Below, piece after piece: positions 17,342 to 18,751 of a stretch of DNA of 62,359 nt. This DNA is from a virus (lineage: Duplodnaviria; Caudoviricetes). Below the pieces are notes generated by a model, which saw nothing but the letters and a program-made list of their open reading frames with translations, made no database searches and was not told the origin of the DNA. The DNA lies in IMG/VR virus record IMGVR_UViG_3300032290_000471, positions 1 to 62,359 of that record, one strand, 5' to 3'. The position numbers and the translations under genes were made by a program. Within the stretch, counting starts at the first letter, position 1. Each line of letters begins with the position of its first letter.

Positions 17342-18310
17342 TCATTTCTGTTTTTTATTCCTATTATTATTGCTACTACTGCGTAGCATACTGATATTAT
17401 TAGAAGTATCGTCATGTAAATCGTTTATTGTTTTGAATATTTTATAGGCCACTTGCGGTACAATCGCATTGCCGTAACCCATTATTGACTCTTTGCGCCA
17501 CCTTGAAAAGGTAATTCCGTCCAATTCGGTGGGAAGCCCATCATCTCCGCCACAAAGCGGGGGTTGAGTTGGGAACTCTTCCCACCATCTTTTGATGCCA
17601 ACCGACTCAGCGTCATGCTGTGCATACTGCCATCCTTCACTTGCGTTGACTTCATTGTCCCTACTGACGATGAACTGTCGAAAGCTGTCGGTGTCGGAAG
17701 CATACGAAACTTCGCCATCTGCTTGAGTGGCATCTGAAGGTTGACCCCCTTGTCCTTGTACTTCTGCTTGTCTGCGTCCCACTTCTCCTGACTCCTCGCC
17801 GTGTTGTAGTCGAAGCGACATGGAGTCGGTAGCAACGAACCAACATCGCTCTCTGCGATGCGGCGCACCGACACTTGCAGCTGCAAGTAATATCGGTTGT
17901 ACTTCGTAGCCGCAACCTTCCAAGTCAGCACACACCTCTTCGAATACCAACCCTCCTGACCAATTAAAGATGCCACGAACGTTTTCGCCCACGACGTAGG
18001 TTGGTCTAATTTCTTGAACAGCTCTAAGCATGTGAGGCCACAAGTGGCGCTCATCGTTTTTGCCGAGTCGTTTTCCTGCGAGTGAGTAGGGTTGGCAGGG
18101 GAAGCCACCTGTAAGGATGTCAATACATCCTCTGTGAATAGTGAAGTCTGTTTGAGTAATGTCATGATAAGAGATTGCGTTTGGCCAATAATGTTTTAAT
18201 ATCTGTCGGGGGAATGGCATCCACTCACAATGGAATACGTTCTGCCAACCCATCCACTCGGCAGCCAAGTCAAAGCCGCCTATACCGCTGAATAAGGATC
18301 CGTGTCTCAT
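17342..18310 (-). CDS. DNA cytosine-5 methyltransferase, alpha polypeptide
   Basis: Motif I FSGIGG, IV GGFPCQ, VI ENVRG, VIII HRRER, X GNAIVPQVA; motif IX not seen in this frame. Confidence 0.92.
   Translation of the reverse strand: MRHGSLFSGIGGFDLAAEWMGWQNVFHCEWMPFPRQILKHYWPNAISYHDITQTDFTIHRGCIDILTGGFPCQPYSLAGKRLGKNDERHLWPHMLRAVQEIRPTYVVGENVRGIFNWSGGLVFEEVCADLEGCGYEVQPILLAAASVGAPHRRERCWFVATDSMSLRLQHGEESGEVGRRQAEVQGQGGQPSDATQADGEVSYASDTDSFRQFIVSRDNEVNASEGWQYAQHDAESVGIKRWWEEFPTQPPLCGGDDGLPTELDGITFSRWRKESIMGYGNAIVPQVAYKIFKTINDLHDDTSNNISMLRSSSNNNRNKKQK
17482..18165 (-). CDS. Nested alternative-frame methyltransferase beta polypeptide (target-recognition region plus motif IX)
   Basis: 227-aa +1-frame ORF with LLPTP/MLPTP and LNPRFVAEMMGFPPNWT. 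Confidence 0.75.
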   Translation of the reverse strand: MTLLKQTSLFTEDVLTSLQVASPANPTHSQENDSAKTMSATCGLTCLELFKKLDQPTSWAKTFVASLIGQEGWYSKRCVLTWKVAATKYNRYYLQLQVSVRRIAESDVGSLLPTPCRFDYNTARSQEKWDADKQKYKDKGVNLQMPLKQMAKFRMLPTPTAFDSSSSVGTMKSTQVKDGSMHSMTLSRLASKDGGKSSQLNPRFVAEMMGFPPNWTELPFQGGAKSQ

Positions 18311-18751
18311 TTAAGTTGAATAGTTTAGTTTATATTTTACGTTGTACACGGGACTGCATAGCCCGCATGATGAGTTGGCTCTAGGTCGTCGGTGCTTGTA
18401 GTGGGTGTGTCCCGCAGGACACACTGCCACCCACTTGCCCTTGATGGTCGCATCGTTTGAACAGCGCTGTCCGTTGCACCCAATATCAATGGCCTTGCTA
18501 CGCCATACGCTGTCGTGACCATGCCCCCTGCCTACCAAGGCGTGAGCAATCTCGTGCAATATAGTGTTTCGTACGTTGTCAGGCTCCCTGATTTTTGTCA
18601 GCGGTGCTGACAAGCCAATGCGTTTCTTGGTGTAGTTACACACGCCGAACCTGCGACGGGCATTGTCAAACTTGAACGTCCAACCGATGTCTATGAGACC
18701 ATGCTCAAGCATCAGCTCAAACGCCAAGTCCTCAGCATCTTGTAGTGTCAT
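18311..18751 (-). CDS. SprT-like zinc metalloprotease
   Basis: RRFGVC, HEIAH, GHGHDSVW, C-terminal Cys/His cluster. Confidence 0.85.
   Translation of the reverse strand: MTLQDAEDLAFELMLEHGLIDIGWTFKFDNARRRFGVCNYTKKRIGLSAPLTKIREPDNVRNTILHEIAHALVGRGHGHDSVWRSKAIDIGCNGQRCSNDATIKGKWVAVCPAGHTHYKHRRPRANSSCGLCSPVYNVKYKLNYST

Follow-up and report, generated by a model that had tools for sequence, protein, structure and literature searches.

Two overlapping reading frames of a phage genome as the probable subunits of one C5 DNA methyltransferase

Introduction

The question raised by this locus is whether an open reading frame (ORF) nested in the +1 frame of a phage DNA methyltransferase gene encodes a second subunit of the same enzyme. 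The locus is found on IMG/VR virus record IMGVR_UViG_3300032290_000471 (Duplodnaviria; Caudoviricetes), which is complete at 62359 bp and has direct terminal repeats; this whole stretch of DNA was analysed and is referred to as the window. An earlier note, made from the letters of the sequence, had interpreted the two frames, which we have designated alpha and beta, as a two-polypeptide cytosine-5 (C5) methyltransferase with the second subunit nested in the gene of the first. Selection, homologues, a predicted docking of the two chains and a natural fusion protein (P0150) now support this interpretation. We consider it probable (roughly 0.85) that alpha comprises the catalytic large domain and a spacer-joined motif X, and that beta is the small domain, with an LPTP-repeat region and motif IX.

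Organisation of the two reading frames

Alpha (18310..17342, minus strand) starts with ATG and encodes 322 amino acids. Beta (18165..17482, minus strand), which also starts with ATG, encodes 227 amino acids in the +1 frame of alpha and lies wholly inside it. The coordinates given for both ORFs in the earlier note were correct; the strand, which it had left unstated, was found to be minus for both, and the overlap that it had put at about 680 nucleotides (nt) measured 684 nt. The segments of the locus are as follows.

18166..18310, minus strand: alpha-only 5′ part, alpha amino acids 1–48, with motif I
17828..18165, minus strand: overlap 1, alpha amino acids 49–161 (motifs IV–VIII) over beta amino acids 1–113; on the beta side a weakly constrained head, then the docking domain and the first LPTP
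17576..17827, minus strand: overlap 2, alpha amino acids 162–245 (linker or spacer) over beta amino acids 113–197 (variable LPTP-module region)
17482..17575, minus strand: overlap 3, alpha amino acids 246–277 (conserved pre-X block, beginning FPTQPP) over beta amino acids 197–227 and the stop codon; on the beta side the motif IX-like block
17342..17481, minus strand: alpha-only 3′ part, with motif X, a C-terminal helix and a low-complexity tail

Translation placed the individual motifs at the following positions.

18275–18292, minus strand: FSGIGG, motif I, alpha amino acids 7–12
18092–18100, minus strand: PCQ, motif IV of alpha
17978–17986, minus strand: ENV, motif VI of alpha
17846–17866, minus strand: APHRRER, motif VIII of alpha
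17450–17473, minus strand: GNAIVPQV, motif X of alpha
17821–17835, minus strand: LLPTP, beta
17689–17703, minus strand: MLPTP, beta
17506–17574, minus strand: motif IX-like C-terminal block of beta, SQLNPRFVAEMMGFPPNWTELPF

All of the motifs that had been claimed for the 322-amino acid frame (I, IV, VI, VIII and X) were thus located, and by these motifs alpha is a putative C5 DNA methyltransferase frame. FSGIGG, which corresponds to the S-adenosylmethionine (AdoMet)-binding motif I (FxGxGG), was invariant in 58 sequences. P71-C72-Q73, E109-N110-V111 and R153/R155 of motifs IV, VI and VIII were invariant in the alpha alignment (A2), as were G280-N281-A282 and P285 of motif X (GNAxxP) in alpha homologues. 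Pfam PF00145 (DNA_methylase) matched alpha with an E value of 1.6e-41 and a score of 143 bits (cut-off 22) over residues 1–164 only, which aligned to positions 1–164 of the 324 in the profile, and the match to TIGR00675 (dcm; E 1.4e-36) agreed with the Pfam result. Residues 1–304 of alpha aligned to positions 54–321 of 327 in phrog_363 (E 7.1e-73), and residues 3–160 aligned with residues 14–170 of M.HhaI (E 3e-17). As the PF00145 match stopped at alpha residue 164, the alpha frame is without a recognisable small-domain and motif IX part. The chain of alpha thus differs from a one-chain enzyme, in which motif IX and the variable region stand between VIII and X; the motif IX-like block was on beta. 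Residues 162–245 of alpha were rich in S, E, Q and G, which agreed with the low-complexity variable region without motif IX described previously. The C-terminal tail of alpha, SSSNNNRNKKQK (17342–17400, minus strand), was an S/N/K-rich low-complexity sequence that was absent from the consensus of its homologues.

The two LPTP repeats and the motif IX-like segment reported for the nested ORF were likewise verified by translation. We take the C-terminal block to be motif IX partly by its likeness to the motif IX consensus. Residues 14–219 of beta aligned to positions 37–282 of 329 in phrog_1008, named 'DNA methyltransferase' (E 3.3e-19). No match to beta was found in Pfam, in NCBIfam or among PDB sequences, the last searched at E ≤ 10 with beta alone and with the profile of the beta alignment (A3), and its closest ESM Atlas clusters carried only the name 'hypothetical protein'. 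Alignments A1 and A3 showed that the number of LPTP modules differed among beta homologues through block insertions, one recurring block being like MKSTQVKDGSMHSMTL of the window; this looks like modular gain and loss of putative recognition units.

Chance and selection in the two frames

The longest stop-free +1 run in alpha was 237 codons. When the synonymous codons of alpha were shuffled 2000 times, which keeps the alpha protein constant, the longest +1 open run had a mean of 73 codons and a maximum of 200, and none of the 2000 shuffles reached 227 codons. Approximately eight stop codons would be expected across the span of beta. The nested frame is therefore beyond chance.

Substitutions were then classed in both frames, a check that the earlier note had suggested. 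Following the OLGenie approach, each possible and each observed substitution was assigned by its effect in both frames, and the ratio of nonsynonymous to synonymous rates (dN/dS) was obtained from 28 mutually independent locus pairs with 75–95% nucleotide identity and 1000 bootstraps over pairs (ranges in parentheses). These pairs came from 69 loci with recognisable segment boundaries, 19 loci without boundary motifs being left out. In the alpha-only 5′ part, dN/dS was 0.07 (0.04–0.09) for alpha and 0.87 (0.71–1.10), near neutral, for the +1 frame; in the alpha-only 3′ part the values were 0.09 (0.05–0.13) and 0.64 (0.45–1.02). Overlap 1 gave 0.16 (0.12–0.18) for alpha and 0.51 (0.40–0.62) for beta. 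In overlap 2, alpha rose to 1.56 (1.20–2.10) and beta was at 0.30 (0.22–0.39), whilst in overlap 3 both frames were constrained, alpha at 0.27 (0.20–0.36) and beta at 0.20 (0.15–0.26). The synonymous rate of alpha, measured in 60-nt bins, was 0.68–1.05 before the beta start, fell to 0.33–0.45 exactly there and then to 0.20–0.31; in the bin holding motif IX it was 0.069. Beta is under purifying selection where the middle of alpha is not.

The alpha linker in overlap 2 was stop-free in all 69 loci. Synonymous shuffles of beta kept this linker open with a mean probability of 0.03 (median 0.003), and in the window none of 300 did so. The 84-amino acid middle of alpha is thus unselected as protein and selected to remain open.

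These results bear on the explanation that alpha alone is functional and that the nested frame is an unexpressed by-product of its sequence. Some of the conservation in the N-terminal part of beta is indeed forced by alpha motifs, for example the block over the EDDR..LWP region. However, selection in overlap 2 acts on beta and not on alpha, outside the overlap the +1 frame evolves almost neutrally, no shuffle yielded such an open frame, and beta-only homologues have been annotated or called as genes thousands of times. The dN/dS and shuffle results already contradict the by-product explanation, which we regard as extremely improbable.

Conservation in phages and bacterial genomes

A search of IMG/VR with beta-derived patterns gave 585 matches, of which 565 were confirmed and the best 80 kept. 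The motif script found the dual layout in 76 of these 80 loci, and the other four were dual by eye, one of them being cut by the contig end. With a second script, both frames were open, with beta in +1, in 88 of 88 sources, comprising the window, the 80 IMG/VR loci and seven GenBank phage loci. The earlier note had held that a nested frame interrupted by stops in homologues would tell against its reading; the exception encountered was locus L018, with one stop (see below).

As a guard against retrieval bias by beta, IMG/VR was also searched with patterns from alpha alone (GGFPCQP and SLFSGIGG). In this set, which has some contigs in common with the first, 79 of 80 loci were dual: 74 by the script and five by eye, the latter with motif variants or with a +1 frame that is open from farther upstream. 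Species-representative bacterial genomes yielded 303 matches, of which 227 were confirmed and 80, mostly from Bacteroidota, were kept; the dual layout was present on 79 of these 80 contigs.

A tblastn search with beta returned 40 phage records, 28 of which covered at least 80% of beta. Ten records were inspected and an alpha frame spanning a +1-frame beta was found in nine, from phages of Bacteroides (two), Paenibacillus, Lactobacillus, Porphyromonas, E. coli and a cyanobacterium, phage C72C1 and a marine phage. Beta identity across the phages of Paenibacillus, Lactobacillus, Porphyromonas, E. coli and the cyanobacterium was 25–32%. Beta is homologous to annotated phage proteins (phrog_1008 and the tblastn records), which supports the nested frame as a real gene under selection.

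The position of the beta start was compared by its distance from a marker motif, which could be recovered by pattern in 73 of 81 sources (the window and 80 loci). An ATG lay 45–66 codons upstream of the marker in 72 of the 73, and exactly 59 codons upstream in 41. The start of beta is positionally conserved.

Predicted structures

AlphaFold2 modelled alpha alone with a predicted local distance difference test (pLDDT) value above 90 across most of the catalytic domain and of 81–92 in the C-terminal helix of motif X, and with values below 50 for residues 185–255. Beta alone had a mean pLDDT of 56, a poor fold that would be as expected for a subunit that needs its partner.

The two chains were co-folded with alignments A2 and A3, as had been proposed in the earlier note. 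The score was 0.87 (0.87, 0.89 and 0.87 in the three runs), and the best of three controls scored 0.01. The mark used was attained by 58 of 80 solved complexes and by 2 of 110 mismatched pairs, which is a rough guide as custom alignments were used here. The runs shared at least 94% of contacts, and the partner pLDDT was at least 64. The contacts of lowest predicted error joined beta 202–216, the motif IX-like helix, to alpha 275–286 (motif X), L15 (motif I region) and 149–151 (motif VIII); others joined beta 93–95 to alpha 141 and beta 66–67 to alpha 294. Residues 56–98 and 111–120 of beta were at the predicted interface, and none of alpha residues 167–239 were named there. As the two chains together make up a fold known from solved one-chain structures, the pass may reflect that likeness. 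The model supports a plausible assembly, not binding itself.

Fusions and other layouts

P0150 is a natural one-frame protein in which alpha, with a linker of approximately 25 amino acids, is followed by a C-terminal beta. Its alpha part had 41% identity (E 2e-79) and its beta part 27% identity (E 1e-13). By its sequence, P0150 appears to tie the alpha and beta functions together and to show that the long linker is dispensable.

The Mycobacterium phage Maddy2 (locus L089, 1188–2582) encodes the catalytic domain, three LPTP modules, a motif IX-like block and motif X in one frame. A shorter +1 ORF of Maddy2 (1357–2001 of the locus) has two LPTP modules besides the docking domain and lacks motif IX, and both ORFs are annotated only as 'hypothetical protein'. 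By its sequence, the layout of Maddy2 resembles an intermediate. In Maddy2 and P0150, although they are one-frame forms, PF00145 matched only the N-terminal half, up to profile positions 165–169, which argues that the LPTP-type small domain is a distinct, uncatalogued module.

Two further layouts were observed. At the IMG/VR locus L326 (1058–1946), the alpha frame stops just past the FPTQ block, and in the +1 frame the LPTP region runs directly into the pre-X block and motif X, with motif IX absent; a deletion variant or another kind of split would account for this. P0145, a 477-amino acid metagenome protein, is alpha in its N-terminal half and beta in its C-terminal half, the two being joined in one frame through an insert that is reminiscent of a homing-endonuclease insertion. 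Assignment of this insert as an AP2 domain was rejected, as it scored 18.6 bits (E 0.0023), below the Pfam cut-off of 33.3.

It may be asked whether beta is a protein of its own at all. A single polypeptide could be made by ribosomes that shift from alpha to beta after motif VIII and back before motif X, or the two frames could result from paired sequencing frameshifts. Joining the start of alpha, the middle of beta and the end of alpha does give the canonical order of motifs I–VIII, variable region, IX and X with an ordinary IX–X spacing, and frame-fused calls (P0042, P0132, P0146, P0152 and P0153) occur, albeit few among billions of predicted proteins. P0153, found on 13 contigs, was considered as a natural fusion of alpha motifs I–VIII with the beta LPTP region and dropped, as the nearest loci (L173, L176 and L177) have the ordinary two-frame layout; relative to these, reading of the sequences (3 of 77 loci inspected) showed a single-base deletion in a run of C, and P0153 may represent an error or a pseudogene, or else a switchable form. 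Against a shifting ribosome stand the alpha linker, which is stop-free far above expectation when such a ribosome would not need it to be, the constraint on both frames in overlaps 1 and 3, and the conserved position of the beta ATG. The layout is not a sequencing error, because it recurs in approximately 250 independently assembled loci. We judge a single frameshifted polypeptide very unlikely.

If beta is a real protein, it could still have another job, such as that of a DNA-binding regulator or a counter-defence factor, with alpha alone being the enzyme. The lack of Pfam, NCBIfam and PDB matches to beta and the uninformative names of its ESM Atlas neighbours leave room for this, and every catalytic motif as well as motif X is retained on alpha. 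Set against it, the stretch of alpha between motifs VIII and X holds no small domain that is constrained or folded, the C-terminal block of beta is predicted to pack on motif X, the in-frame fusion P0150 joins alpha and beta, in Maddy2 the catalytic domain shares one frame with the LPTP modules, motif IX and motif X, and this type of alpha is always accompanied by beta. A separate function for beta is therefore unlikely.

Proposed architecture of the enzyme

The two-subunit reading can be set out as follows. Two polypeptides from one stretch of DNA would form one C5 DNA methyltransferase. Alpha would supply the AdoMet-binding and catalytic large domain with motifs I, IV (the catalytic Cys of PCQ), VI and VIII, and its pre-X block and motif X helix would complete that domain past the 84-amino acid spacer, which is predicted to be disordered and would be kept stop-free to hold motif X on the one chain. 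Beta, probably translated from its own ATG at 18165, would supply the segment that one-chain enzymes hold between motifs VIII and X: a small domain made of a docking part (amino acids ~45–100), the variable LPTP modules, which are likely the target-recognition part, and the motif IX-like helix. This helix would pack on motifs X, I and VIII of alpha, rebuilding the DNA-binding cleft. By analogy with M.EcoHK31I, described below, alpha may require beta for activity. A single mRNA for both would tie together the synthesis and inheritance of the subunits. The arrangement probably arose from a one-chain ancestor whose VIII–X segment went out of frame, since the motif order is canonical across the two frames and one-frame relatives exist.

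Several observations weigh against this architecture. The first ~50 codons of beta are weakly constrained, with a +1 dN/dS of 0.61–1.12 in 60-nt bins; the synonymous rate of alpha is halved over the same codons. The 'motif IX' of beta is named from motif likeness and its predicted packing on motif X, and neither PF00145 nor PDB sequences matched it. The co-fold is a model and may echo a memory of one-chain methyltransferase structures. By inspection, no Shine-Dalgarno-like sequence preceded the beta ATG in the window; its absence would not be unusual for a Bacteroidota host, and in Paenibacillus phage Shelly, the clear case among the loci compared, GGAGG is present 12 nt upstream of the beta start. 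Single in-frame stops were found in beta at L018 (1486–2262) and in alpha at L160 (2356–3381; bacterial genome set), in genes that are otherwise conserved, and could be sequencing errors, decay or read-through. L326 is a rearranged locus and was the one non-dual member of the alpha-only set. Finally, the loci are relatives, so that the counts of loci given above are not independent; only the 28 pairs were chosen to be so.

Comparison with known systems

In the accessible parts of its published descriptions (PMC2836561, PMC3404938), M.EcoHK31I of E. coli, which recognises YGGCCR, has a beta subunit encoded wholly inside alpha in another frame, the precedent that the earlier note had cited and as it had stated it. 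There, alpha holds motifs I–VIII together with X, and beta holds motif IX, activity requires the two subunits, the N-terminal region of beta is important for their association and the target-recognition domain is predicted on alpha; M.EcoHK31I and M.AquI are called exceptions among characterised C5 methyltransferases. Compared with this description, the present locus has the same nested beta and the same division of motifs, with an IX-like block on beta, and residues 56–98 in the N-terminal half of beta are at the predicted interface. In contrast to that placement of the recognition domain, the variable region of alpha at the present locus had a dN/dS of 1.56 and a pLDDT below 50, and the variable LPTP region (0.30) was on beta. 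M.EcoHK31I is also one component of a restriction-modification system; here, none of 10 neighbours was recognised as a restriction gene, four of them being without a match. By this analogy the locus appears to follow the M.EcoHK31I design, except that the recognition region is apparently on beta.

An annotated parallel is gp55/gp56 of Paenibacillus phage Shelly, a nested pair with the same +1 relation in which gp56 is named 'g55 internal gene'; the same nested pair is present in phage Leyra. At 26.8% identity (E 3e-7), Shelly gp56 aligned with the window beta over 95% of its length. The host of Shelly belongs to Bacillota, however, the sequences are distant and the function is given only as 'DNA methyltransferase'. 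The accessible part of a 48-phage genome paper lists two cytosine methyltransferases without comment (PMC6070908).

M.AquI is also a C5 methyltransferase in two chains, and the accessible part of its description (PMC3404938) has its genes adjacent and non-overlapping, split in the variable region, with motifs IX and X on the small subunit; at the present locus the genes are nested and motif X is on alpha. M.HhaI and other one-chain C5 enzymes share the motif order and large-domain fold but build both domains from one chain. Maddy2 resembles the window in its catalytic domain, its LPTP modules and a motif IX-like block that precedes motif X, although there the modules and both motifs share the frame of the catalytic domain.

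Genomic context

The methyltransferase gene is inside a minus-strand block with primase/helicase, exonuclease VIII, Sak-like annealing protein and SprT-like protein genes. Comparison of 10 neighbouring ORFs with PHROGs identified the primase/helicase, exonuclease VIII and Sak-like protein as well as a peptidase; none of the ORFs was recognised as a restriction enzyme, and four were without a match. The phage genome is most likely methylated to shield it from host restriction, the one ground for this being the presence of an orphan methyltransferase in a phage early replication/recombination module. The closest relatives were in Bacteroides phages and Bacteroidota genomes.

Upstream of alpha, an ORF of 146 amino acids (18311–18751, minus strand) encodes a HEIAH zinc-protease-like motif and matched phrog_1006 (E 3e-45). 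It resembles the 'SprT-like protease' genes of Streptomyces phages (blastn, 70–72% identity over ~150 nt). This ORF ends at 18311, one base ahead of the alpha ATG, which suggests co-transcription or translational coupling.

Family size and annotation

A beta search of called proteins of similar length gave 3094 matches at E ≤ 1e-3. The A3 profile matched 18475 cluster representatives (50% identity) at E ≤ 1e-3, 6847 at 1e-10 and 1574 at 1e-30; these are counts of beta-like domains, nesting not being proven for all. The annotation of the nine dual GenBank phage loci was then compared. Alpha only was annotated at five, beta only at two, both at one, and beta with an alpha fragment at one. The two loci with beta only were from a Porphyromonas phage, where beta is a 'hypothetical protein', and Cylindrospermopsis phage Cr-LKS3, where it is a 'methyltransferase'; in both, the catalytic alpha frame is open and unannotated. 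The expectation of the earlier note that annotation would drop the nested gene therefore held at the five alpha-only loci. One correction applies to it: the nested gene is not everywhere hidden or rare, beta-like proteins having been called by the thousand.

No account of this design as a family-wide feature was found in the accessible parts of the literature searched, which included PMC11445585, PMC8227390, PMC6070908 and bioRxiv 10.1101/2024.07.15.603628, with subscription journals mostly outside it.

Implications

Approximately 430 nt in which both proteins are constrained, inside a 684-nt same-strand overlap of a double-stranded DNA phage with clear selection on each frame that differs by segment, and recurrence in hundreds of loci recommend this gene as an exceptionally clean natural model for long-term dual coding and for a gene split by reading frame and not by position. 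The nested kind appears to be very common and largely mis-annotated. Gene callers keep one frame, so that the enzyme is routinely described by half of itself, and a target-recognition prediction made from the annotated methyltransferase would read an unconstrained spacer.

Phages of at least five bacterial phyla are represented in the clade. We put it at somewhat below an even chance that a very large clade of C5 methyltransferases, in phages and prophages, has the nested layout as its norm, and that this is not one E. coli curiosity. If this clade-wide reading is true, the recognition small domain would lie out of frame within the catalytic gene, the 'variable region' of alpha would be a neutral spacer that tethers motif X, and specificity predictions from the annotated alpha alone would be systematically blind. 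If M.EcoHK31I belongs to the clade, the position on alpha published for its recognition domain would have to be revised. As LPTP modules are found in either frame (in Maddy2 and L326, and in the fusions P0150 and P0153), specificity modules could be moved about or swapped through frameshifts and small deletions. An orphan methyltransferase that is self-contained and whose recognition subunit can be exchanged would be relevant to how phages escape restriction.

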